A stretch of DNA of 64,000 nucleotides, from assembly GCF_045037415.1 (NCBI RefSeq), contig NZ_CP173438.1, one strand, 5' to 3'. This document shows, piece by piece, positions 7,602 to 36,151 of this stretch. The position numbers were made by a program, and so were the translations under genes. Below the pieces are notes generated by a model. That model ran no database searches, was not told the DNA's origin, and saw nothing but the letters and a program-made list of their open reading frames with translations. The DNA is from Escherichia coli (GTDB taxonomy: Bacteria > Pseudomonadota > Gammaproteobacteria > Enterobacterales > Enterobacteriaceae). How positions within the stretch are numbered: the first letter of the stretch is position 1; each line of letters begins with the position of its first letter.

Positions 7602-8852
7602 ATGTCAACTCCACTTCAAGGAATTAAAGTTCTCGATTTCACCGGTGTGCAATCTGGCCCATCTTGTACTCAAATGCTGGCCTGGTTTGGCGCTGACGTC
7701 ATTAAAATTGAACGTCCCGGCGTTGGTGACGTAACGCGCCACCAGCTGCGAGATATTCCTGATATCGATGCGCTTTACTTCACCATGCTTAACAGTAACA
7801 AACGTTCTATTGAATTAAATACCAAAACAGCGGAAGGCAAAGAGGTAATGGAAAAGCTGATCCGCGAAGCTGATATCTTAGTCGAGAACTTTCATCCAGG
7901 GGCCATTGATCATATGGGCTTCACCTGGGAGCATATTCAAGAAATCAATCCACGTCTGATTTTTGGTTCGATCAAAGGGTTTGATGAGTGTTCGCCTTAT
8001 GTGAATGTAAAAGCCTATGAAAACGTTGCTCAGGCAGCGGGTGGCGCGGCATCTACTACAGGTTTTTGGGACGGTCCGCCGCTGGTAAGCGCTGCAGCGT
8101 TGGGTGACAGCAACACCGGAATGCATTTGCTGATCGGTTTACTTGCTGCTTTGCTGCATCGCGAAAAAACGGGGCGTGGGCAACGAGTGACCATGTCAAT
8201 GCAGGATGCCGTGTTGAACCTTTGCCGCGTGAAATTACGCGACCAGCAGCGTCTCGATAAATTGGGTTATCTGGAAGAATACCCGCAGTATCCGAATGGC
8301 ACATTTGGTGATGCAGTTCCCCGCGGTGGTAATGCGGGTGGTGGTGGTCAGCCTGGCTGGATCCTGAAATGTAAAGGCTGGGAAACCGATCCTAACGCCT
8401 ATATTTATTTCACTATTCAGGAGCAAAACTGGGAAAACACCTGTAAAGCCATCGGCAAACCAGAATGGATTACCGATCCGGCATACAGTACAGCCCATGC
8501 CCGACAGCCACATATTTTCGATATTTTTGCTGAAATCGAAAAATACACTGTCACTATTGATAAACATGAAGCTGTGGCCTATTTGACTCAGTTTGATATT
8601 CCTTGCGCACCGGTTTTAAGTATGAAAGAAATTTCACTTGATCCCTCTTTGCGCCAAAGTGGCAGTGTTGTCGAAGTGGAACAACCGTTGCGTGGAAAAT
8701 ATCTGACAGTTGGTTGTCCAATGAAATTCTCTGCCTTTACGCCGGATATTAAAGCTGCGCCGCTATTAGGTGAACATACCGCTGCTGTATTGCAGGAGCT
8801 GGGTTATAGCGACGATGAAATTGCTGCAATGAAGCAAAACCACGCCATCTGA
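7602..8852 (+). CDS. frc: Formyl-CoA:oxalate CoA-transferase Frc (416 aa)
   Basis: ORF 416 aa [40 protein letters not shown]..., family III CoA-transferase signature. Confidence 0.9.
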
Positions 8853-24260: not shown

Positions 24261-24280
24261 ATGGTGTCCCCTGCAGGAAT
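24261..24280. repeat. Distal attachment-site repeat of the argW-integrated element
   Basis: ATGGTGTCCCCTGCAGGAAT is an exact 20-bp copy of the argW 3' end at 36076-36095. Confidence 0.8.
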
Positions 24281-24400
24281 GTGATTAATGAATTAAGAAA
24301 TTGATTTTTATGAATATAAAATTTTTATTGTCATAATTCTATACACTTAGTTATACACATAAGAAAAAATCAGTGATTTTTATGGACTGGGTGTATCTTC

Positions 24401-24490
24401 CCCAGCCCAGCCCAGCCCAGCCCAGCCCAGCCCAGCCCAGCCCAGCCCAGCCCAGCCCAGCCCAGCCCAGCCCAGCCCAGCCCAGCCCAG
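24401..24490. repeat. Pentanucleotide microsatellite (CCCAG)x18
   Basis: Read directly: 90 bp of perfect CCCAG units, then CCCCAACAAA. Confidence 0.95.
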
Positions 24491-24582
24491 CCCCAACAAA
24501 CCTAATGCAGTCTTTAGTTTACAAATTGTTACATATATTATTCGTCAAATTTCATTATTATCAGAGAGGTAATGACTCCAAC

Positions 24583-25086
24583 TTATTGATAGTGTTTTAT
24601 GTTCAGATAATGCCCGATGACTTTGTCATGCAGCTCCACCGATTTTGAGAACGACAGCGACTTCCGTCCCAGCCGTGCCAGGTGCTGCCTCAGATTCAGG
24701 TTATGCCGCTCAATTCGCTGCGTATATCGCTTGCTGATTACGTGCAGCTTTCCCTTCAGGCGGGATTCATACAGCGGCCAGCCATCCGTCATCCATATCA
24801 CCACGTCAAAGGGTGACAGCAGGCTCATAAGACGCCCCAGCGTCGCCATCGTGCGTTCACCGAATACGTGCGCAACAACCGTCTTCCGGAGCCTGTCATA
24901 CGCGTAAAACAGCCAGCGCTGGCGCGATTTAGCCCCGACATAGCCCCACTGTTCGTCCATTTCCGCGCAGACGATGACGTCACTGCCCGGCTGTATGCGC
25001 GAGGTTACCGACTGCGGCCTGAGTTTTTTAAGTGACGTAAAATCGTGTTGAGGCCAACGCCCATAATGCGGGCTGTTGCCCGGCAT
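24583..25086 (-). CDS. insB: IS1 transposase InsB (167 aa)
   Basis: [53 protein letters not shown]..., matches IS1 InsB. Confidence 0.95.
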
Positions 25087-25280
25087 CCAACGCCATTCAT
25101 GGCCATATCAATGATTTTCTGGTGCGTACCGGGTTGAGAAGCGGTGTAAGTGAACTGCAGTTGCCATGTTTTACGGCAGTGAGAGCAGAGATAGCGCTGA
25201 TGTCCGGCGGTGCTTTTGCCGTTACGCACCACCCCGTCAGTAGCTGAACAGGAGGGACAGCTGATAGAAACAGAAGCCAC
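25005..25280 (-). CDS. insA: IS1 InsA (91 aa)
   Basis: [43 protein letters not shown]..., matches IS1 InsA. Confidence 0.95.
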
Positions 25281-25528
25281 TGGAGCACCTCAAAAACACC
25301 ATCATACACTAAATCAGTAAGTTGGCAGCATCACCTATCAGAGATTAACAAGCATTGGCAAAGGTTGTCACTCAGTAATACTCACCATTATTAACTATTA
25401 TTCACCATTATTTAGTATTCAAATTCTTTGAATGAGTTTGAAAGTGCCAGTCTTTACGTATTAATTCTTCTGTGCAAGTATATATACACCCAATAGAGAC
25501 TAATTAAGTCTTAGTATAAATATCTAAT

Positions 25529-25771
25529 GTGAAGGACATAGCCATGAGCTTATTGCCTCGGGAAAACGCACCCCAAAAAAGATATAGACTTCTGAGAATA
25601 TCAGAAGTGATTAATTTGACTGGCTTACCCAAGTCAACAATTTATCTAAAGATAAAGAATGATGAATTTCCGAACCAAGTTTCTATCGGTTCTCGTTCTG
25701 TTGCATGGGTGGAGCATGAAGTTAATGAATGGATAGAGAAGAATATTCTCAATAGAAAATTAAACTCCTAA
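25529..25771 (+). CDS. AlpA-family phage transcriptional regulator (HTH); true start may be the internal Met at 25544
   Basis: ORF 80 aa with YRLLRISEVINLTGLPKSTIYLKIKNDEFPNQVSIGSRSVAWVEHEVNEWI, the AlpA/MerR-like HTH pattern. Confidence 0.75.
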   Translation: MKDIAMSLLPRENAPQKRYRLLRISEVINLTGLPKSTIYLKIKNDEFPNQVSIGSRSVAWVEHEVNEWIEKNILNRKLNS

Positions 25772-25788
25772 ATTGAGGTGGCAAATAT

Positions 25789-26649
25789 ATGGTTGACAAT
25801 GTTTTTAAGAAGAAATTGGCATCAATTAAGAACGAACATGTGTCGGTGTTAGATAGTTACAAAGTAAGATCATTTAAAGAGACTCATAGCGACACGGCCT
25901 GTATTGTGCGTATTATTGAAATATATTCACTGAATAAGCTGCGAGCTAAAGGTGAAAAGCTGTATTCACTTACGGGGTTAACAGTACCTGATACGGAAAC
26001 TGTGGCGAATGAGATCAACCTGCTCCTGAGCCGTTATGCCCAGTTGTGTCGTCAGGAAGAGGAAGAGTTATCTTTCCGGCAGCGTGAAGTGACAAATGCG
26101 GAAGTTGCATGGAAAAGCACATTCTCAAAAAACGGCGTCAGTAGCATTGCTGAAGCCAAAACGAATAAAATGGGGCATGCTGAACGAGCGGATGCTGAAC
26201 GGTATTACCATCTGGCTGTTTCCCGGTTGAATGAACAACATAGTCGATTGAGCACGATCAAGCTTTTGCCGGGAGTACTGGCCGATGAAGGAAACTACAT
26301 TGGGAAGGGAATCGATAAGCGTTTACTGAATATATTTCCTCAATCCGGCCAGATCCCTGCTGATTTTATTTCTGTATTTAATGACAGTGACGTTGTCCGT
26401 GATATTAAATTTATTACTGATGCACTCAAGTCTTTATCTGATTCCGTGAGTGAAATTATTAGTCGTTGTAGCGTTCCAACTGATCGTTATGTATTAAATA
26501 ACGGTGGAATGGCAAGAGCTATGGCTTACAGGGAGTACTATCGAGCAGATAATTATGTATTACGTTCAGTCGTAAGTGACCGGGATTATGTTGAGCATGT
26601 AATGAAATACAATCTGGTTACTGAGTACAAAAATAAAATCTTTTCTTAA
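25789..26649 (+). CDS. Hypothetical protein (286 aa) directly upstream of capsid-like gene; possible scaffold or capsid-remodelling protein
   Basis: ORF track only; consistent coding frame; function assigned by position, not by motif. Confidence 0.5.
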   Translation: MVDNVFKKKLASIKNEHVSVLDSYKVRSFKETHSDTACIVRIIEIYSLNKLRAKGEKLYSLTGLTVPDTETVANEINLLLSRYAQLCRQEEEELSFRQREVTNAEVAWKSTFSKNGVSSIAEAKTNKMGHAERADAERYYHLAVSRLNEQHSRLSTIKLLPGVLADEGNYIGKGIDKRLLNIFPQSGQIPADFISVFNDSDVVRDIKFITDALKSLSDSVSEIISRCSVPTDRYVLNNGGMARAMAYREYYRADNYVLRSVVSDRDYVEHVMKYNLVTEYKNKIFS

Positions 26650-26671
26650 ATACTTAAAAAGGTGAAAAACT

Positions 26672-27676
26672 ATGTATGCCTTCAAAACTGAAAGGCCGGA
26701 CGCAGCACGTCGTTATCATAATAAATTCGTCACTGGCACTAACTATCAGGAAGAATCAAACAGACGCTTTGCATTAAGCGAACCTACTGAAAATATACTG
26801 CGTACCTCAATTCTGGAATCCGGGTGGCTTATTAAAAATATTACCCTACGTGATGTTAACGCCGTGTCAGGTAATGCCGTCAATATTGGTGCCAGTGAAC
26901 TGTATACCGGACGTGTGGATGGTGGCCGTTTCCACAAAAAAATGGCAATCAATGGTACGGAGTTCTTTCTGACAGAGACGGATACCTGCGCCCGGATCAG
27001 CTATTCCGATATGTCTCATATTTACCATACCGGCGTGCCGGATGAGTTTGAGAAAACGGTTGAGAGCTTTTTTGCCCAGGCATATGCGCTGGACATGCTG
27101 CGGGTCGGTTTCAACGGTGTGTCGATTGCAAATACTACAAACCCGGAAATCAATAAAAAAGGCGAGGATGTCAATATTGGCTGGCATGCACTGGCGAAAG
27201 CCTACGGGAACGGAAAGCAAATCATCTCTGAGCCTGTCACTCTGGGAGAGACTGGCACCTGGAAAAATATTGATGCTCTGGCCAACCATCTGATTACAGA
27301 GCTTATTGCTGAGCAGTTTCGTGAAGATCCTCGTCTGGTTGTACTGGTTGGGGCAGAGCTGGCAGCACATCAACGCCTGAAGTTATTTAATGCCGCAGAC
27401 CGCCCGTCTGATGTGAATGCGGCACAGATGGCTACAAGTTCTGTTGCTGGCCGCTTTGCGTTTATTCCCCCGTTTATGCCGGGTAAGCGTCTGGCAGTAA
27501 CGACGCTGGATAATCTGCATATTTACACTCAGGCGATAACACGCTGGTTTCGTGCTGAGTTTGATGATGAAAGCAGTGAATACGTGCATTCCTACCTGCG
27601 CAATGAAGGTTATGCACTCGGTGAACCTGAACTGTACGCGGCTGTTGATGAGTGCACCCTGACGTTTGCGGATTGA
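26672..27676 (+). CDS. P2-GpN-like major capsid protein homolog (334 aa)
   Basis: Blocks FALSEPTENILRTSILES..., MLRVGFNGV...NIGW..., DALANHLITELIAEQFREDPRLVVLVGAEL and TLDNLHIYT align by eye with my recollection of P2 GpN; needs profile confirmation. Confidence 0.45.
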   Translation: MYAFKTERPDAARRYHNKFVTGTNYQEESNRRFALSEPTENILRTSILESGWLIKNITLRDVNAVSGNAVNIGASELYTGRVDGGRFHKKMAINGTEFFLTETDTCARISYSDMSHIYHTGVPDEFEKTVESFFAQAYALDMLRVGFNGVSIANTTNPEINKKGEDVNIGWHALAKAYGNGKQIISEPVTLGETGTWKNIDALANHLITELIAEQFREDPRLVVLVGAELAAHQRLKLFNAADRPSDVNAAQMATSSVAGRFAFIPPFMPGKRLAVTTLDNLHIYTQAITRWFRAEFDDESSEYVHSYLRNEGYALGEPELYAAVDECTLTFAD

Positions 27677-27905
27677 CTTAGCGACAGAAAGACCCGCTCA
27701 GAGGCGGGTTCGTTTACAGCATCAGGAAAAATGAAGAACTATTTTTAAGCAGAGGCTTAAGCATGCCAGCGTTAATTAATCCAGGCAATGATCAGTTTTC
27801 GGTTATAAATTTCTTGCCTCACCAGGAATGCGCGGGATATAGTTTAAAGGTTGCCGCAAAATCGGCAGCCGGGCGTAGGAACCCGTGTTATCTGAAGGCG
27901 ATACT

Positions 27906-27929
27906 ACACGCGCTAGGCGTGTTTTTTTG
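27906..27929 (+). terminator. Rho-independent terminator inside the apparent non-coding leader upstream of the primase operon
   Basis: ACACGC-GCTAG-GCGTGT hairpin followed by TTTTTTT. Confidence 0.55.
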
Positions 27930-28149
27930 TGTCGCAGCTTTGACTCACCTAAAATTTATGGTGTGGTGGCTGATTGTATTTTTTTATTTTTTACGCCACA
28001 TCATCAGAATTATGGTAGTCCAGGCGGGGCAGCTTTCGGGCTGGCCGGTATCCTTCAGAGCCGGTATTCCTACCCCCGTCTGGGCTACCACCCATGAGCG
28101 TAGGAACTCCGGTGGTAGCGTTACCCGCTATCTGAAGGAGGTTGCCATT

Positions 28150-28353
28150 ATGGCTACAGTCCCTGCTTTATCTCACCCTGAATTTACCTTTGTCTTTCTG
28201 GCTGTCCGCCGTACAGACCGTGATGCCCGTCCACGCCCTGTGCGTGTAATCGCAGAATGCGAGCATGCTGCACGCCTTAAACTTGCCACTGAATTTATCC
28301 TGAGCTTTGCTGCCCGTATCCCTGTGAAAAGAGCCGGGGAGGTGGTTGCATGA
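28150..28353 (+). CDS. Small hypothetical protein (67 aa), first gene of a translationally coupled operon
   Basis: ATG at 28150 preceded by GAAGGAGG; stop overlaps next start (ATGA); the 196-aa ORF-track call 27763-28353 is treated as spurious upstream of this Met. Confidence 0.4.
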   Translation: MATVPALSHPEFTFVFLAVRRTDRDARPRPVRVIAECEHAARLKLATEFILSFAARIPVKRAGEVVA

Positions 28354-28586
28354 AATCCATGAATTTTAAGCAAGGCTGCATATTGAGTGAACAGGGGGAG
28401 AGTCGTCTGTTACGGGCGGCACTGGCCAGTGAGTTTCTTGCAGAGGTCTTGTCCGTGCCCACAGTGAATGGAGCGAGAACTGTTTCAGCGGAAGGCGCTG
28501 CGGCTTTAGTGGCCTGTATTGCCGAACAACTGGATGGCGTTGTTAAGGAAACCAGCACAATTAAGGGAGTGATGCGCGATGAATAA
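28350..28586 (+). CDS. Small hypothetical protein (78 aa)
   Basis: ORF track; start overlaps upstream stop and end overlaps next ORF. Confidence 0.45.
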   Translation: MKSMNFKQGCILSEQGESRLLRAALASEFLAEVLSVPTVNGARTVSAEGAAALVACIAEQLDGVVKETSTIKGVMRDE

Positions 28587-28989
28587 TAATCAAAATTTAA
28601 AGGCGCATGCTTTACGAACAGCAGTCTTACGCTACTACATTGCTGATGCATTCATTTCCTTAATGGTGCGTGTTCATAATGAACCTGTTTATATTGAAGA
28701 TGGCGAACGAATAGAACTCTCCCACGAAAAAGTGGTGAGTAATATTATTTACCATATTGAAATGCCGTGGGTGAATGAGTTTGGGGCTGATGCTGGTTGC
28801 ATACTGGCCGCAGAGAAACTGGAAAAAATGCTTAAACCAGGCTTTATGTCAGAAAATATTCGCCTGTCAGTTTTTGGTGTCACAGAGATGCGTGAGGTTT
28901 ACCGGGATATTATTTTCGGAGCACCTGATGGCGAACTACCCGAAGGTTTTGAATTTGTGAAGCCGGAAGGTCAGGAGGTGCTGCTGTGA
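28579..28989 (+). CDS. Hypothetical protein (136 aa) immediately upstream of primase
   Basis: ORF track; 4-nt overlap with primase start suggests coupling. Confidence 0.5.
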   Translation: MNNNQNLKAHALRTAVLRYYIADAFISLMVRVHNEPVYIEDGERIELSHEKVVSNIIYHIEMPWVNEFGADAGCILAAEKLEKMLKPGFMSENIRLSVFGVTEMREVYRDIIFGAPDGELPEGFEFVKPEGQEVLL

Positions 28990-31673
28990 AAACACCGTCT
29001 GTATCCACGATTTCCGGAGCTGCAATTGGGCGCTGGCCTTATATCCTGTCAGCATTAGGTATTAAAGTACCGTCCGCAGGACATCATGGGGCTTGCCCTG
29101 CCTGTGGTGGAAAAGATCGTTTTCGACTGGACGATAAAGCGGGGCGAGGGACGTGGTTTTGTAATCAGTGCGGTCATGGCGATGGTCTTGATCTGGTTCG
29201 TCTGGTGACAGGAAGAAAGATAAAAGAAGTCGCCGGGATGGTATCTGAGGCGCTTGCATTACCAGAAATACAGGAGAAGCCCGCATTGCCAGCCAGGAAA
29301 AAGGCCGCAGGAAAAGAAGCGGGCGCGGAGCGATATACCAGACTCAGACAGCAGTCCTGCAATGGTGAGCCGGTCTATCTGACAAATAAGAGCTTACACG
29401 GGTATTCACTTCCCTTGCTGTCACAGCCTTTGAATCTGGCCGGAATAACATTTTCCACCGGTTCATTACTGCTGCCTTTGACGGATATTTCCGGGAATAT
29501 TACTGGTGGCCAGCTTATCAATCCTGACGGGGATAAAAGTCTGCTGCCCGGTAGCCAGCTGTCTGGCGCATTCATTGCCCTGACCGATATACCCGCTGAA
29601 ACACCTGAACAGGTGATTATCACTGAGGGTTTTGCCACGGCGCTTACCGTCAGTCTGCTGACTGAAGGATGGATCGTGGCGGCTGTCGCTGCCACCAATT
29701 TACTGAAGGTGACGGAGCAGATCCGAAAACGCTGGCCGGAAACCCGGATCATTCTGGCCGGAGATAATGATCTGGCTGACGGCAAAGAAAACACCGGGCG
29801 TATTCAGGCAGAGAAAGCCGCCAAAGCGGTGGATGGCTGGGTAACGCTCCCTCCGGTACGCCATAAGGCTGACTGGGATGATTATCGGCAGGAAGTGGGG
29901 AAAGAACGGGCGAGAGATGCCTTTCGTGAAGAAATGACGCTGCATGGCAAAGGGCAGACCCGTTTACCAGAAGGGTTCCGGCTGACAAAAGAATATTTGT
30001 GGTACGACAAGCTGGTTAATAAGTCTGATGGTGATACAGAGATACGTAATATCAAAATTTGCAGTCCGTTGCGGGTGACGGCAATCACCAGTGATGCTGA
30101 TGGAAGTAATTACGGGCGTTTGCTGGAATGGGAAGATACCAACGGAAACAGCCGTAAATGGGCAATGCCGATGGAGATGCTGGGCGGTAGCGGGGAAGAA
30201 CTGCGCCGCGTTCTGCTGGTTAACGGGCTTTCTTACATCAACATTAACGGCATGGCCAGAGCATTCCTGATGGAATATATCTCGCTGTGTAAACCGGACA
30301 GAAAAGTAACCTGTGTGAATAAAACTGGCTGGCACGGCGGGGTTTACGTTCTCCAGGATGAAGTGATAGGGCGCGAAGCCCAGTCAGTCATCTTACAAAC
30401 ATCGAGTGTGCAGGGGCGTGATTTTCGTGTCAGCGGCACATCAGAGGGCTGGCGTGAAAATATAGGCCGTTATTGCATAAAGAATGCCCGTCTTGCCTTT
30501 GCGGTGAGTCTGGCATTTGCTGCCCCCCTTCTGAAACTGGTTGGTATCGGCGGTGGAGGTTATCACCTCAAAGGGGAATCCACAGACGGTAAAACCACGA
30601 CGATGAAAGTGGCTGCATCAGTATGTGGTGGAACAGATTTCTGGCATACGTGGCGGGCGACGGGGAATGCCTTAGAAGGAACGGCGAGCCGCCGCAATGA
30701 TGCCACGCTGATGCTGGATGAAATCCGGGAGGTTGACGGCAGGGAGGCGGGAAATATCGCTTATATGCTGGCTAACGGGCAGGGCAAAGCCAGAGCCAGA
30801 ACAGATGGTTCGGTAAGGGAAACCAACCGCTGGAATCTGTTGTTTCTGTCTACCGGGGAACTGTCACTGGTAGAGCATGCGGCAAGCGCCGGGGAACGTA
30901 CGTATGCCGGGGTTGAGGTCAGAATGATCCAGATCCCAAGCGATTCGGGCAAGTATGGCGTGTTTGAAGAACTTCATGGCTTCAGTAGCGGGAAAACCCT
31001 GGCTGAGCATCTTGAGCAGCACGTAGCGCATTATCATGGTGCACCATTCCGCGACTGGCTGTATTGCCTGACCGCTGATCTGCCGGAACTGACCAGTCAG
31101 GCGAAAGCCTTATTGAAAGAGTATACCCGAAGGCTGACGCCGGAAAATGCCGGGAATCAGGTTGGCCGGGCTGTTACCCGTTTTGCTCTGGTTGCGATGG
31201 CCGGGGAGCTGGCCACAAAAGCGGGCATCACAGGATGGCCGGAGGGAGAGGCCTTTCGTGCCGCTCAAAGCTGTCTGGCTGCATGGATGGCTGACCGGGG
31301 CCATACAGCTAATCAGGAAGATAAAGCGGCACTTGAACAGGTTCGGGACTTCATGACGCGTAATCAGTTCAGTCGGTTTGCTGACTGGAATGACGACAGG
31401 AACCGGCCTGTTTCAATGATGGGATTCAGAAAAGTCGATAAAGGAGACAACGTGACAGAGCCGGTTGTGACGTTCTACGTTCTCCCGTCAGGCTGGAAGG
31501 AGATCTGTAAGGGATTTGACTCGCGTAAGGTGGCCAGGTTGTGTGTGGACGCGGGCTGGCTGAAACCCGGTGAAGATGGCCGGACGCAAAACAGCATTCG
31601 CCTGCCAGAAATAGGGCTTAAACGTGTGTACCAGTTCAATACACAGGTACTGGGAAGCGCTGAACCTGAGTGA
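28986..31673 (+). CDS. P4-alpha-like zinc-binding primase-helicase (895 aa)
   Basis: N-terminal CPACGG...FCNQCGHGDG zinc-finger pair; Walker A GESTDGKTT; overall satellite replication-protein architecture. Confidence 0.8.
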   Translation: MKTPSVSTISGAAIGRWPYILSALGIKVPSAGHHGACPACGGKDRFRLDDKAGRGTWFCNQCGHGDGLDLVRLVTGRKIKEVAGMVSEALALPEIQEKPALPARKKAAGKEAGAERYTRLRQQSCNGEPVYLTNKSLHGYSLPLLSQPLNLAGITFSTGSLLLPLTDISGNITGGQLINPDGDKSLLPGSQLSGAFIALTDIPAETPEQVIITEGFATALTVSLLTEGWIVAAVAATNLLKVTEQIRKRWPETRIILAGDNDLADGKENTGRIQAEKAAKAVDGWVTLPPVRHKADWDDYRQEVGKERARDAFREEMTLHGKGQTRLPEGFRLTKEYLWYDKLVNKSDGDTEIRNIKICSPLRVTAITSDADGSNYGRLLEWEDTNGNSRKWAMPMEMLGGSGEELRRVLLVNGLSYININGMARAFLMEYISLCKPDRKVTCVNKTGWHGGVYVLQDEVIGREAQSVILQTSSVQGRDFRVSGTSEGWRENIGRYCIKNARLAFAVSLAFAAPLLKLVGIGGGGYHLKGESTDGKTTTMKVAASVCGGTDFWHTWRATGNALEGTASRRNDATLMLDEIREVDGREAGNIAYMLANGQGKARARTDGSVRETNRWNLLFLSTGELSLVEHAASAGERTYAGVEVRMIQIPSDSGKYGVFEELHGFSSGKTLAEHLEQHVAHYHGAPFRDWLYCLTADLPELTSQAKALLKEYTRRLTPENAGNQVGRAVTRFALVAMAGELATKAGITGWPEGEAFRAAQSCLAAWMADRGHTANQEDKAALEQVRDFMTRNQFSRFADWNDDRNRPVSMMGFRKVDKGDNVTEPVVTFYVLPSGWKEICKGFDSRKVARLCVDAGWLKPGEDGRTQNSIRLPEIGLKRVYQFNTQVLGSAEPE

Positions 31674-31699
31674 TTATCGCGTGAGTCTTATTTTTATGA

Positions 31700-31888
31700 G
31701 GTAACACTGGTAACAGAGGTAACACCCGTTACTGATGCGGTTCTTCAGTGTTACCAGTCAAAAATACTGACTGGTAACAGAGGTAACAAAAAATGGTGTG
31801 TTACCACGCGTTACCTCTTGATTTTGCTAACTGGTAACAGATTAAATCCTTTTAAATCAATAGCGTTACACGTGTTACCAGTGTTACA
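31700..31888. promoter_or_regulatory. Iteron cluster, candidate origin of replication of the element
   Basis: At least 12 copies of GGTAACA / TGTTAC(C/A) in both orientations within ~190 bp just 3' of the primase gene. Confidence 0.55.
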
Positions 31889-31955
31889 CGTTCAGAACAA
31901 GAGGTAGGGATCCAAATCCCTTCTTCTGGCGGGCAACAGTATAGGGCACAGAACG

Positions 31956-32228
31956 ATGAAGATGATGAGAATGTACTGCCCCACATGTCAGGCAGTAGCA
32001 CGGATAGGTAAAACAAACAGGAAACACCCACAACTGTACGATGTGTACTGCTATTGCTCTAATGTGGAGTGCGGTCACTCGTTTGTGATGAATGTTGCTT
32101 TCTCCCATTCCGTTAGTCCAAGCGCGCTGAACGGGCAGGGAAGGGTTAAAGAGCTGATTGATGCAATTCCACCCGAGGAACGGGAAAAGGCTTTAAAGTT
32201 GCTGCTGGCTGCGCAAAAGAATGGGTAA
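31956..32228 (+). CDS. Ogr/Delta-family zinc-finger late-gene activator-like protein (about 87-90 aa)
   Basis: ORF MKMMRMYCPTCQAVARIGKTNRKHPQLYDVYCYCSNVECGHSF...; C-x2-C ... C-x4-C spacing typical of Ogr/Delta. Confidence 0.65.
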   Translation: MKMMRMYCPTCQAVARIGKTNRKHPQLYDVYCYCSNVECGHSFVMNVAFSHSVSPSALNGQGRVKELIDAIPPEEREKALKLLLAAQKNG

Positions 32229-32907
32229 AGTATGCGTCGGGAATGGCCGATCTGTTCCCGGAACCTGAACACAGGATTTCAGTTTATACGGTCATAAAAT
32301 TATTATTTTTCAACTGGTTATCTTCTTCATGTTTCACAAACCTTCATAAAATCACACACCTAAAATTAATTATCCATTTAATATCATAGAGTTGCGTATT
32401 CAGGCCATAGATTCGACGGACAGTAAAACTGAAAAAAAATGAATTTCTTTTCATTCTTTTCAGTTCCTGTATCGCAGTACATCTCGAGGACTGGCACGGA
32501 CTGGCGGTATCGTTTGTAAAAAATCCAGGCTGAAAATTTTTAGTGATATGAAAACCGCAGGCGGGTGCGGTGTAGTGCCGTTTTGGTCTGTCGAGCGTAT
32601 ATTTTCCTTTTTCACGATTGCTGCATATCAAAACGAATGTGCAGATATCAGGCCGTGTCAAACCGTGAATCGTGGAGCCTAAATGCCCAAACTACGTTTG
32701 TAGACCTAGCTAGGGGAAGGTTTCCACATATACTGCTACCTATCTTCCAGTCGCTGGTGAGGATCAAGGTAAGCTAACTGGTGAACAAGAAAAGTACTTT
32801 CGTATCTTGCGTACTCGTTTTTTTTGATTAGTATGTACAGGTAGTAACTGGATGGTGAGAATTCGTCATAACTTATCAAATTGCATGATGTTTATAGAGT
32901 ATGAGTA

Positions 32908-33789
32908 ATGAGTCATAATAAAAAGGAATATGCTAAATTTTTCCGTCGCCCCATTTTTTCATCCTTAGCAAAAGGTAAGGATATTTCGGATTTATTTGGG
33001 AGTTTTGATTCTTACTGCTATGAAACACTGTTTTCAAACAATGATAATAATGAACATGAGATTTCACTAAGGGATTTATTTACATCATTATATGATTTTT
33101 TGCGTCTGAATTATAGAAATGAATATGTTTATAAGACAGCACTTGTCAATAAAATAATATTCGGTAAGCACAGCCCAAAAACAAGTTCGTCGTCCATAGA
33201 GTTACCAATTAAAAACTCTATAGTGGATGTTGCGGTGTTTAATGGTACGTCTACAGCTTACGAGATTAAGACAGAGTATGATTCACCAAAAAGGTTGATT
33301 ACTCAAGCCCCTGATTATTTGGATGTTTTTGATAAAGTGTATATAGTTACACATCCAGAGTATGCAAGTAAATATTGTGCTTTAAATCTCCCCAGAGTGG
33401 GAGTTATGGTTTTGAATAAAAAAGATCAATTGAGTGTCATTAAGGAGGCAGATTCAAATATTGATTATATTAAAAGTGACAGCTTGTTTTCAGTTCTTAG
33501 AAAGGAAGAGTTCTTAGCTATAATAGAAGATTACACTTCAACTAAAATAAATATGCCTAACGGATTGGTTTATGAATATTGTAAAGAGATATTCATGCAG
33601 ATGCCATTAAACATAGCAAATAAATACTTTATCTCTGCTATGAAAAAAAGATGTAACGATAAAGTTTTTTTGGATTATATTTATTCTCTTCCAGCATGTT
33701 TACGTGTTTTAGGTTATGCAACACCATTATCAAGAAAGCAAAAAGAATTCATCATGAATTTGATGGATGTAAAAATTAAAATTTGTTGA
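32908..33789 (+). CDS. Hypothetical protein A (293 aa), AT-rich cargo gene with PD-(D/E)xK-like motif
   Basis: ORF track; IVDVAVFNGTSTAYEIKTE (D107 ... E119-x-K121) resembles a restriction-endonuclease-fold catalytic core; strong AT bias unlike flanking DNA. Confidence 0.6.
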   Translation: MSHNKKEYAKFFRRPIFSSLAKGKDISDLFGSFDSYCYETLFSNNDNNEHEISLRDLFTSLYDFLRLNYRNEYVYKTALVNKIIFGKHSPKTSSSSIELPIKNSIVDVAVFNGTSTAYEIKTEYDSPKRLITQAPDYLDVFDKVYIVTHPEYASKYCALNLPRVGVMVLNKKDQLSVIKEADSNIDYIKSDSLFSVLRKEEFLAIIEDYTSTKINMPNGLVYEYCKEIFMQMPLNIANKYFISAMKKRCNDKVFLDYIYSLPACLRVLGYATPLSRKQKEFIMNLMDVKIKIC

Positions 33790-33810
33790 TATCCTCAGGA
33801 GTTGTAAGTT

Positions 33811-34761
33811 ATGTATAGCCCATATTTGTATGCGAGAAGTACAGAGTTATTATGCCTTAGGGACCTCGTTGCGAAGGGAGTTAGCCTAAATGGTCTGCTA
33901 CCAATTTTAGAACCAATTAACGTCAATACGAGAAATTTATTAACATGTTTAAATGTTTGGAATTCTGACATAATTGTTATCCTTAATCCTTATCAGGAAG
34001 ATTTTTCTTCACACAATAACGTCTTAACTTTAAATCAAAATTTATCAAGTGTATTAACAAATAAAAATAATATCATCTCTGGATATCTTATTCAGCCCAA
34101 TACAACGATTAATGATATTAATAATTGGTTGAATGCTAACTTAAATAGACGAGTTGCACTTCTATATGATAATCCATCATTATCCAACTCTGATATTCAG
34201 TTGTTGGCGACAAATCAATTGATTAGTTATCATGTTGTTTTAAATAATAAAATGCTTCCTAATCAGTGCGCTCTTCTTCCTTTGTCGAAGTTAATTATTA
34301 TTAGCGATAACTTTAGAAAGTTAGCAAAAAATGCTGATTATAATGGGCCGGAACTTTTCACGCACGCACATCAATTCGTGGGACAAAATTACTTAGGATT
34401 TGGCGATTATACAATTACTGGCCAGGTACTAGATCTTGGAGGTGGTCAACCTTCTGCTGTTGCCGCACATTTGGTGTTCAAGAATTTACAAGCGAATACA
34501 GTTTGGATTCGTCATTTTGTATCAAGCAACACGCAACGAGGAAGTTCAAATGTTACTGCAAAATTTTTAGATGTTTCAGATCAAATTACAAATCTTGTTC
34601 CCCAACATCCAACCCAGTTTGGCAGCAACATTGGTCTTAACTATTATTATTACAATAGTCAACCAACTGTAAGGCATTTCCCTGGGTTGCCAAAAAACAA
34701 ACAGTATCAAATTACTCACCATATTTGTTTCATGCTGGATTTAATAGCAGGTCGTATTTAA
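33811..34761 (+). CDS. Hypothetical protein B (316 aa), AT-rich cargo gene, Asn/Ser/Leu-rich, no motif I can assign
   Basis: ORF track; AGGAG Shine-Dalgarno 8 nt upstream; 21-bp gap from gene A; 3' end overlaps integrase 3' end convergently. Confidence 0.6.
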   Translation: MYSPYLYARSTELLCLRDLVAKGVSLNGLLPILEPINVNTRNLLTCLNVWNSDIIVILNPYQEDFSSHNNVLTLNQNLSSVLTNKNNIISGYLIQPNTTINDINNWLNANLNRRVALLYDNPSLSNSDIQLLATNQLISYHVVLNNKMLPNQCALLPLSKLIIISDNFRKLAKNADYNGPELFTHAHQFVGQNYLGFGDYTITGQVLDLGGGQPSAVAAHLVFKNLQANTVWIRHFVSSNTQRGSSNVTAKFLDVSDQITNLVPQHPTQFGSNIGLNYYYYNSQPTVRHFPGLPKNKQYQITHHICFMLDLIAGRI

Positions 34762-35916
34762 TAAGCTAGCGTACCATTCCATCATTACTTGTCGATCTTT
34801 AATATATTGCGCATGATTGTAAGTACCTCGAATAGAGTTCTTATCAACATGCGCAAGCTGCATTTCAATCCAGGCACTTTCAAACCCATGCTCATGCAAG
34901 ATGGTGCTCATGGTATGCCTGAAACCGTGACCCGTTAACCGACCGTGATAACCCAGTAGTTTTATCACTTTGTTGATGCTGGCTTCGCTCATTGGTTTAC
35001 TGACGTCATTCCGGCCAGGGAAAACGAGGCTGTAATTCCCTGTTATTTCTTGCAGCTTTTTCAGGATATTGATCGCCTGAGTTGATAACGGAACCAGATG
35101 GGGGCGGCGTTTCTTCATCCGTTCTTTGGGGATCTCCCATAAGGCATTATCTAAATCAAACTCAGCCCATTCCGCTGCACGTAGTTCAATTGTTCGCACG
35201 CCTGTTAGCATCAACAGCTGCGTGGCGTATTTGGTAACTAAACTGCCCTGATAGTTATCCAGAGCATTAACGAACTCGGGCAACTCGCTTTCAGTCAGGA
35301 ACGGGAAGTGTTGGGTTTTAGGTTTGTTGAGTGCGATAGCTAAATCGGGTGCAAAATTATACTTTGCTCTACCAGTGGCAACAGCATAACGAAGCACTTC
35401 ACCACAGCGGCGGCGGATCTTACTGGTTTGCTCTAGCGCACCTCTTTTCTCTATTTTTTGCAGGACGGTTAGCAGTTCTAATGGTTCAATCTGCTCAATT
35501 GGGCGCTGGCCGATAAAAGGAAAAATATCCTTTTCCATACAATTGAGAACCTCTTTTGCATAACCCTCTGACCAGGTGGCTTTTTTCGATGAGTGCCATT
35601 CTCTGGCCACAGACTCAAAGCTGTTCTCATGCGCGAACTGCAAAGCAATCTTATCTGCTTTTCTGGCTTCACTTGGGTTTATCCCGTTGGCTAACATCGA
35701 ACGCGCTTCATCACGTTTGGTACGTGCCTGTGCCAACGACACATCGCCATATACGCCAAAGGAAATCATCTTAGGCTTACCTGCAAAGCGATAGCGAAAA
35801 CGCCAGCCTTTACTGCCCGCTGTGTCGATCAGGAGTGATAGCCCCATACCATCGTTAAGCGTATAGGGTTTGTCCTTCGGTTTTGCTCTTTTTATTTGGA
35901 TGTCAGATAGCAGCAT
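34741..35916 (-). CDS. P4-family tyrosine integrase (391 aa)
   Basis: ORF 407 aa trimmed to MLLSDIQIKRAKPKDKPYTLNDGMGLSLL...; C-terminal HxxR ... Y catalytic pattern; adjacent to tRNA. Confidence 0.85.
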   Translation of the reverse strand: MLLSDIQIKRAKPKDKPYTLNDGMGLSLLIDTAGSKGWRFRYRFAGKPKMISFGVYGDVSLAQARTKRDEARSMLANGINPSEARKADKIALQFAHENSFESVAREWHSSKKATWSEGYAKEVLNCMEKDIFPFIGQRPIEQIEPLELLTVLQKIEKRGALEQTSKIRRRCGEVLRYAVATGRAKYNFAPDLAIALNKPKTQHFPFLTESELPEFVNALDNYQGSLVTKYATQLLMLTGVRTIELRAAEWAEFDLDNALWEIPKERMKKRRPHLVPLSTQAINILKKLQEITGNYSLVFPGRNDVSKPMSEASINKVIKLLGYHGRLTGHGFRHTMSTILHEHGFESAWIEMQLAHVDKNSIRGTYNHAQYIKDRQVMMEWYASLLNTTCY

Positions 35917-36075
35917 GTGTATAGAAAAAAGATCGAACTCAGTTATACACAATGTTATACGCAAAGATGTATAGATTCCATTAGAAATAATGGTACTTTG
36001 CTGGACGAGTATAAGGAGATGATATCAGTTAAAACAGTGAGTTATGGAATTAATTGAACTTAGTGAGAAGTGTTC

Positions 36076-36095
36076 ATGGTGTCCCCTGCAGGAAT
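36076..36095. repeat. tRNA-proximal attachment-site repeat (overlaps argW 3' end)
   Basis: ATGGTGTCCCCTGCAGGAAT, identical to 24261-24280. Confidence 0.8.
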
Positions 36096-36151
36096 CGAAC
36101 CTGCAATTAGCCCTTAGGAGGGGCTCGTTATATCCATTTAACTAAGAGGAC
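36077..36151 (-). tRNA. argW: tRNA-Arg (anticodon CCU)
   Basis: Reverse complement reads GTCCTCTTAGTTAAATGGATATAACGAGCCCCTCCTAAGGGCTAATTGCAGGTTCGATTCCTGCAGGGGACACCA; cloverleaf with CCU anticodon and T-arm GGTTCGATTCC. Confidence 0.9.

Follow-up and report, generated by a model that had tools for sequence, protein, structure and literature searches.

The sequence analysed here is a stretch of 64,000 nucleotides (nt) from Escherichia coli (NCBI RefSeq assembly GCF_045037415.1, contig NZ_CP173438.1), referred to below as the window and numbered from its first letter, and its subject is the leader region lying upstream of a primase operon around positions 27,763 to 28,353. Judged from its sequence, this locus is very probably the immunity region of a P4-related satellite prophage, working as a CI RNA switch of the P4 type. 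It is homologous to the PLE-seqA-cI(seqB)-seqC-kil/eta region of satellite phage P4, and its RNA family is shared with the c4 repressor of phages P1 and P7. The mechanism is already known from satellite phage P4 and is curated in Rfam; the recognition sequence differs from that of P4. Statements made below about the mechanism in P4 rest on the summaries given in PMC4825925, PMC3632133, PMC10111431 and PMC3177188.

Comparison with phage genomes by blastn aligned positions 27835-28230 of the window to positions 8285-8707 of phage P4 (NC_001609) at 70.9% identity over ~400 nt. The same three Rfam models (C4, isrK and c4-a1b1) matched P4 and the window with their order unchanged, and in a pairwise alignment with P4 the promoter hexamers, the seqA stem, the terminator and the CI stems were nearly identical. 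A first-pass annotation of this DNA, made from the letters alone, had likened the region to the CI RNA and seqA/seqB/seqC logic of P4 while holding the sequences themselves to be unrelated. The likeness is supported by the Rfam matches, by the DNA homology to P4 and by compensated changes in the recognition motifs (see below); the statement that the sequences are unrelated was wrong, as shown by the alignment to P4 itself. The region is homologous, and not merely analogous, to that of P4, and the idea of an RNA switch is therefore stronger than the first-pass annotation had assumed.

The repeated motif from which that proposal had started was recovered in two direct copies, with GCGTAGGAAC confined to positions 27873 and 28098 and TATCTGAAGG to positions 27889 and 28129. 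Joined as the composite pattern GCGTAGGAAC-N(5-35)-TATCTGAAGG, they were found twice in the window, against 0.00 expected from 100 dinucleotide-preserving shuffles. Between the two copies lie CCTTCAGA (28052) and ATTCCTAC (28066), which, as had been reported, are complementary to TCTGAAGG and GTAGGAA, respectively.

Recognition modules and their covariation

Recognition involves two short modules, each with two target copies and one antisense copy. In module a, the window targets a1 and a2 read GTAGGAA and the antisense segment a' reads TTCCTAC (P4 targets GTGAGAA, antisense TTCTCAC); in module b, the targets b1 and b2 read TCTGAAGG and the antisense segment b' reads CCTTCAGA (P4 targets TTCACAGG, antisense CCTGTGAA). 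Written as RNA, the specificity of the window is a = GUAGGAA and b = UCUGAAGG, and that of P4 is a = GUGAGAA and b = UUCACAGG. Between the window and P4, all three copies of each recognition motif have changed together, such that the changes compensate one another. Duplex energies were predicted at -37 to -40 kcal/mol for cognate pairs and at -20 to -27 kcal/mol for the window against P4, the non-cognate duplexes being weaker by 12-19 kcal/mol. On these grounds, heteroimmunity is predicted between the window element and P4, and the specificity predicts which P4-like satellites would be excluded by this island, a very common one in E. coli (~420 complete-genome records).

Related leaders were obtained by scanning viral contigs for the conserved seqA hairpin, which yielded 120 loci, from which 84 distinct leaders were retrieved. 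Sixty distinct P4-like leaders were aligned (alignment A2), and pairings between segments were counted as pseudoknot-style helices; all leader counts given below refer to this set. The other 24 of the 84 were left out when the regular expression for the CI core failed on them (other seqA loop and terminator types, other phage groups), and the specificity catalogue therefore covers close relatives of P4 only.

Covariance analysis across related elements, named in the first-pass annotation as a way of checking its proposal, showed that both antisense segments covary with both target copies. For a1-a', 99.8% of cells were paired and 6/7 pairs were changed on both sides; the corresponding values were 98.8% and 6/8 for b1-b', and 100% and 6/7 for a'-a2. 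Counted in fixed columns, b'-b2 was paired in 85.6% of cells, with 6/8 pairs changed on both sides, because ~15 sequences are shifted by 1 nt in the alignment register; a register-free count gave b' and b2 an uninterrupted run of 7 or more Watson-Crick pairs in 59 of the 60 leaders. None of 500 shuffles reached the observed pairing or covariation, and sliding the partners by 1-3 columns lowered pairing to 33-47%. Also counted free of register, cognate duplexes comprised 7-9 contiguous Watson-Crick pairs, compared with ~3.3 on average between different types. The leaders fell into 5 a classes and ~13 b classes, with a'/b' occurring in at least 25 combinations, and the a/b combination of the window was also present in two leaders (L026 and L116) from contigs classed as viral.

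Some leaders in the set depart from this agreement. In L012:8601-8941 (+), a1 and b1 belong to the GTGAGAA/TCTAACGG type, whereas the remaining segments (a', b', a2, b2) belong to the GTGGAAA/TTCACAGG type, which suggests a recombinant whose crossover fell between seqA and cI. In three further loci, L029:6781-7076 (+), L009:5704-6044 (-) and L106:6843-7174 (+), the b segments are mismatched or degenerate. It is a speculative idea, to which we give little credence, that the a and b segments are independently exchangeable modules forming a combinatorial immunity code among P4-related elements, and that in mismatched recombinants such as L012 and L029 the seqA RNA might serve to decoy the CI RNA of a competing satellite. 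If this were true, the terminated seqA RNA would be an anti-immunity weapon acting at the level of RNA, and the window element would represent one allele in that contest. The three-way covariation set itself is a natural catalogue of immunity types and could guide the design of orthogonal antisense-RNA switches.

RNA elements and nested reading frames

A promoter-like site (TTGCCT-18-TATAGT, 27814-27843, + strand) was found by promoter scan just upstream of the first repeat, where it had been missed by the first-pass annotation. Its CTTGCCT and GGATATAGTTT elements are identical in P4 in the pairwise alignment, and a '-10 consensus' is annotated at the corresponding position in an old P4 record. 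The site is predicted to be the counterpart of the constitutive P4 promoter PLE, with a transcript start near 27850. At that position begins an IsrK-like RNA corresponding to P4 'seqA' (27850-27927, + strand), matched over its full length by the Rfam isrK model RF01394 at 68.9 bits against a gathering threshold of 50. It consists of a stem-loop (27850-27869), a hairpin (27870-27885) presenting target a1 (core GTAGGAA, 27875-27881), the single-stranded target b1 (TCTGAAGG, 27891-27898) and an intrinsic terminator. For the latter, the terminator scan agreed with what had been noted from the sequence after the first motif copy, giving a GC-rich stem of 6 bp (27906-27922) and, directly after it, TTTTTTT, the T-run extending to 27929. 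Across the related leaders, the five inner pairs of this stem were 100% paired, one of them showing a GC/CG swap in 18/60, and the outermost of the 6 bp was paired in 65%. IsrK and C4 are structural homologs of the P4 seqA and CI RNAs (PMC3632133, PMC4825925).

The antisense segments lie in a C4-family antisense RNA (28008-28095, + strand), the counterpart of the P4 CI RNA (seqB), which the first-pass annotation had not recognised. The Rfam C4 model RF01695 matched it over its full length at 81.1 bits (gathering 45, E = 2.5e-14). The predicted mature core (28013-28090) comprises a 17-bp closing stem, hairpin 1 (28030-28043) and hairpin 2 (28044-28065), with b' (CCTTCAGA, 28052-28059) in the loop of hairpin 2 and a' (TTCCTAC, 28067-28073) single-stranded. 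RNA folding, the other check that had been suggested, showed that the segment folds compactly, with a minimum free energy (MFE) of -47.8 kcal/mol and z = -5.3. Among the 60 homologs the closing stem was 100% paired, and in hairpin 1 four of five pairs were compensatory. Candidate -35/-10 pairs for a separate CI RNA promoter were also picked manually and were rejected for wrong spacing.

The downstream target, P4 'seqC', was located by motifs and covariation at 28084-28141 (+ strand). As described previously for this DNA, a 9-bp hairpin formed by GCTACCACC (28084-28092) and GGTGGTAGC (28111-28119) carries the second copy of GCGTAGGAAC in its loop, where it presents a2 (GTAGGAA, 28100-28106), and the Shine-Dalgarno sequence GAAGGAGG (28134-28141) ends 8 nt ahead of the ATG at 28150. 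Target b2 (TCTGAAGGA, 28131-28139) overlaps this Shine-Dalgarno sequence. The a2 hairpin was 99.3% paired in the related leaders, with 3 compensatory pairs, and it differs from that of P4 by compensated changes (GCTACCACC/GGTGGTAGC in the window, GCTATCGCC/GGCGATAGC in P4). In the unprocessed transcript, the CI closing stem and the a2 hairpin exclude each other, because one stretch of sequence serves both as 3' arm of the closing stem and as 5' arm of the hairpin.

Such mutually exclusive stems sharing an arm are what a purely cis-acting attenuator would use, in which alternative hairpins of one transcript decide whether it is terminated or translated, without any stable trans-acting RNA; the MFE fold of the full leader, with its cis pairing between the a1/b1 and a'/b' regions, points the same way. 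We nevertheless consider an attenuator of this kind very improbable, given that 28013-28090 matches, at 81 bits, a family of processed RNAs acting in trans, that the specificity classes (5 a, ~13 b) make sense only with discrimination in trans, and that the CI RNA of P4 confers immunity in trans (PMC4825925, PMC10111431).

The promoter, both RNA genes and a kil-like gene are all contained in a 196-amino-acid (aa) open reading frame (ORF) at 27763-28353 (+ strand), the apparent counterpart of P4 eta, which is present in the ORF list and in RefSeq, where 27763-28353 is given as a single coding sequence (CDS) named 'Icd-like'. The kil frame runs through the whole leader without a stop in 57 of the 60 leaders, with a mean of 0.12 in-frame stops compared with 4.7 and 2.3 in the other frames, and in 57/60 the leader lengths differ by multiples of three only. 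From the start of the long ORF to the seqA stem the distance is 55-124 nt, which places the start upstream of the promoter. That the 196-aa CDS is an annotation error, like the old P4 entry 'cI gene product aa 1-137', was considered and rejected on the basis of the open frame in 57/60 and the lengths in multiples of three. By its sequence, the ORF matches the nested eta/kil arrangement of P4. In P4, the constitutive promoter is internal to eta, CI and seqA interactions end the transcript early, and processing gives the CI RNA; translation of Kil requires read-through, full-length Eta is made from the upstream late promoter, and translation of Eta prevents termination (PMC10111431). The description of the region as a non-coding leader accordingly holds for transcripts from the internal promoter, on which it would be untranslated, and fails in so far as the region lies inside a conserved long ORF.

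The same observations would also be expected if the locus encoded only a 196-aa 'Icd-like' protein, the repeats being coding repeats with no role as RNA: RefSeq has the single CDS, and its frame is open in the great majority of relatives. This reading has next to no probability in our view. It fails to explain a reverse-complement copy that covaries with two direct copies, and it fails equally to explain the compensatory changes in the stems and the Rfam structure scores; coding and RNA functions overlap here, as they do in P4 eta (PMC10111431). The value of the present result is mainly one of annotation: the appropriate label is that of a P4-type CI/C4 RNA immunity locus with nested eta/kil genes, and the region should be read neither as a plain 'Icd-like' CDS nor as an unexplained structured leader. 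The locus opens no new biological question.

Nested at the 3' end of the long frame is a 67-aa Icd-like ORF (28150-28353, + strand), the P4 kil counterpart, which scored 68.1 bits with NCBIfam NF033153 phage_ICD_like (cutoff 25) and is collinear with the 65-aa Kil of P4. It is predicted to be the first gene translated from the internal promoter, its ribosome-binding site being the b2 target. The P4 termination site timm is Rho-dependent and lies at X51522 8365-8209 (PMC3177188), which equals positions 3260-3416 of L001 and maps exactly onto the kil start. The homologous stretch of the window, 28150-28306 (+ strand), is rich in C (31%) and poor in G (21%), as is P4 timm (36% and 22%, respectively), and has G-rich flanks; from its position and base composition, it is taken as the putative Rho-dependent termination region corresponding to timm. 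Beyond it lies the putatively regulated operon (28350-31673, + strand; ORF list and PHROGs), composed of a 78-aa ORF, a 136-aa ORF and an 895-aa ORF for a P4 alpha-type primase/helicase. The last matched the DNA primase family phrog_1139 at 618 bits, in agreement with the earlier description of the region as a leader upstream of a primase operon, and the downstream gene order matches the left operon of P4.

Proposed operation of the switch

By sequence identity with P4 PLE, the site at 27814-27843 would drive constitutive transcription from near 27850. Many transcripts would end at 27906-27929, giving a seqA/IsrK-like RNA of ~78 nt, and transcripts reading through would give a stable CI/C4 RNA, also of ~78 nt (28013-28090), presumably by processing with RNase P and polynucleotide phosphorylase (PNPase) as in P4 and P1. 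Segments b' (CCUUCAGA, in the hairpin loop) and a' (UUCCUAC, single-stranded) would pair with a2/b2 and so sequester the Shine-Dalgarno sequence of the Icd/Kil-like ORF. From their complementarity and the three-way covariation, a' and b' would pair also with a1/b1 upstream. If events follow those in P4, the untranslated kil would permit Rho termination in its C-rich region and the primase operon would be switched off, leaving the element quiescent and excluding superinfecting elements of the same specificity. Transcripts arriving from further upstream would be translated through the region as the eta-like ORF and, as proposed from P4, would bypass the block. The combination a = GUAGGAA and b = UCUGAAGG would define an immunity type other than that of P4, to judge from the sequences and the predicted duplex energies.

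The least settled step is the part played by the short terminated seqA RNA, which could be a target only or an activator or decoy as in Gifsy-1. In a switch of the Gifsy-1 IsrK type, the short RNA at 27850-27927 would itself be a regulator in trans, binding the read-through transcript or titrating the C4-like RNA and thereby activating translation of the downstream ORF; the first repeat copy would then do more than offer a second target, serving as an anti-repressor or decoy. We hold this to be unlikely on balance, though less so than the other alternatives considered here, and it could coexist with the P4-type explanation. The isrK model match (68.9 bits) speaks for it, as does the precedent of Gifsy-1, in which short IsrK binds an inactive read-through mRNA and makes it translatable, and the C4-like STnc1160 is processed from that mRNA (PMC4825925). 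Transposon-directed insertion-site sequencing (TraDIS) likewise indicates that the IsrK-like element of P4-like prophages is required in S. Typhi, by a mechanism that is unknown (PMC3632133), and because the short RNA and the mRNA target have their a and b motifs in common, the two must be competitors for the CI RNA. P4 genetics, on the other hand, identify seqA as a target needed for CI-dependent termination and not as an activator (PMC4825925, PMC10111431), and the downstream genes in the window are P4-like (kil, primase) rather than anrP/antQ.

Several points weigh against the interpretation of the locus as a working P4-type switch. A separate CI RNA promoter was sought by scan between the terminator and 28008 and none was found, and production of the CI RNA therefore depends on read-through of a strong-looking terminator; the lack of such a promoter is consistent with a CI RNA made by processing of the leader transcript. 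The c4-a1b1 model RF03163 ('a1, b1 targets of C4') matched 27837-27889 at 43.8 bits, just below its gathering threshold of 46.7. The role of the upstream copy and of its terminated short RNA is unsettled in the literature (PMC3632133). No homolog of sid, psu or epsilon was recognised in NCBIfam and PHROGs scans of the island, in which no dedicated profiles were used. The P4-like core of SatelliteFinder consists of int, psu, delta, sid, alpA, epsilon and alpha (PMC10085698); of these components, the island was seen to carry int, an alpA-like gene, an alpha-type primase and an Ogr/Delta-like protein. Since sid, psu and epsilon were not recognised in these general scans, the element is described as a relative of P4 and not as a canonical P4-like satellite in the sense of PMC10085698. 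It is atypical for P4, carries an internal IS1, and may be defective, with a switch that is intact in sequence but idle.

Taken further, this would make the module a sequence relic, intact in a defective remnant and controlling nothing relevant in the host, an outcome that we rate as improbable. It would accord with the IS1 inside the island near attL, with the three P4 genes left unrecognised by general scans, and with the at least 99% identity of a 681-nt region in ~420 E. coli genome records, a near-identity that fits clonal inheritance. Against a relic stand the ORFs, every one of which is open from the alpA-like gene to the integrase, the perfect matching of promoter, terminator, RNA stems and both targets, and the recurrence of the same leader type in the viral-classed contigs L026 and L116.

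Compared with known systems, the P4-type switch proposed here is closest in layout to P4 itself. Both have the order promoter, seqA hairpin and terminator, CI RNA, seqC hairpin, Shine-Dalgarno sequence and Icd/Kil-like ORF, together with a nested long ORF, a timm-like C-rich kil region and an alpha-type primase downstream. Besides the recognition sequences of both modules and the unrecognised sid, psu and epsilon, the window differs from P4 in a spacer between terminator and CI RNA that is 27 nt shorter, and in having a P2-type capsid homolog upstream of eta where P4 has the alpA-like orf88. With the immI region of P1 and P7 (c4, icd, ant), it shares the Rfam C4 family (clan CL00128), recognition by a'/b', and targets that lie upstream and on the ribosome-binding site of an Icd-like ORF as first gene; DNA similarity to the P1-like phage RCS47 was detectable by blastn over the C4-to-icd part. 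It differs from immI in the score of the c4-a1b1 model given above and in being followed by a primase operon instead of the antirepressor gene ant, with no C1-type protein repressor apparent. No Ant family match was obtained downstream of the icd-like ORF with NCBIfam or PHROGs, the ORFs there being those of 78 aa, 136 aa and the primase. Gifsy-1 (IsrK, STnc1160/orf45, anrP, antQ) likewise has an IsrK-family RNA with an intrinsic terminator, followed by a C4-like RNA that in Gifsy-1 is processed from read-through; its short RNA, however, activates a downstream antirepressor pathway, and its downstream genes are unrelated to the kil-primase operon of the window. Similarity by blastn over the seqA and CI segments extended to linear-plasmid prophages (80-83% identity in PY54 and phiKO2, a group that also includes Klebsiella phages) and to Stx and P1-like phages (68-70% identity). 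In PY54, phiKO2, the Klebsiella phages and the Stx phages the RNA segments alone are similar, whereas the genome context and the regulated genes differ.

The host island

The immunity region is carried by an integrated island of ~11.8 kb at tRNA-Arg (24261-36095), bounded at both ends by the 20-bp direct repeat ATGGTGTCCCCTGCAGGAAT (24261-24280 and 36076-36095), the right copy of which overlaps the 3' end of the tRNA-Arg gene (36080-36151, - strand). The integrase gene (34741-35916, - strand) lies beside the tRNA gene. In order, the island contains IS1, an AlpA-like gene, a 286-aa ORF, a P2-family capsid homolog, the immunity region, two small ORFs, the 895-aa alpha-type primase, an Ogr/Delta-like zinc-finger gene, an sce7726/sce7725 pair and the integrase.

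The P2-family major capsid homolog (26672-27676, + strand) stands directly upstream of the immunity region. Its score with TIGR01551, 204.6 bits, falls slightly short of the 219.65 cutoff; with phrog_70 it scored 291 bits. For a relative of P4 it is unusual to have a GpN-like capsid gene of its own instead of sid/psu, and such a gene may redirect capsid assembly in a different manner.

Two features were recorded near the left attachment repeat. The IS1 (24583-25280, - strand), with insA/insB-like ORFs of 91 and 167 aa, lies between that repeat and the alpA-like gene. In the island of strain SK1144, which is otherwise 99.9% identical, the gap between dsdC and the helix-turn-helix (HTH) gene is ~800 bp shorter, and that island probably lacks this IS1. 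Just inside the same repeat is a microsatellite, (CCCAG) x 18.6 with 100% matches (24401-24493); pentanucleotide arrays of such length and perfection are uncommon in E. coli, and this one could change its length by slippage.

TGT-N12-ACA dyads were found at 25471-25488 and 31882-31899, where they precede the alpA-like gene (25529) and the Ogr/Delta-like gene (31956), respectively, by ~40-75 nt. We take this pattern to be the type of Ogr/Delta activator site found in P2/P4 late promoters. The dyads may mark late promoters, the first of which could drive translation of the eta-like ORF; with ~2 expected by chance in the 7 kb searched (a rough estimate), they are a hint only.

Between the Ogr/Delta-like gene and the integrase lies the pair of sce7726/sce7725-family genes (32908-34761, + strand; NF033832 175.6 bits, NF033831 242.2 bits). 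A PADLOC match was obtained for the first protein of the pair only ('cll', 65.8 bits). The position of the pair is the variable anti-phage hotspot of P4-like satellites (PMC9122126).

Outside the chromosome, 892 of 1864 E. coli matches were located on plasmids. These cover the CI/C4 segment only, at ~85% identity, and are annotated as 'ash family protein'; they probably represent phage-plasmids whose C4-type RNA genes have been annotated as protein.

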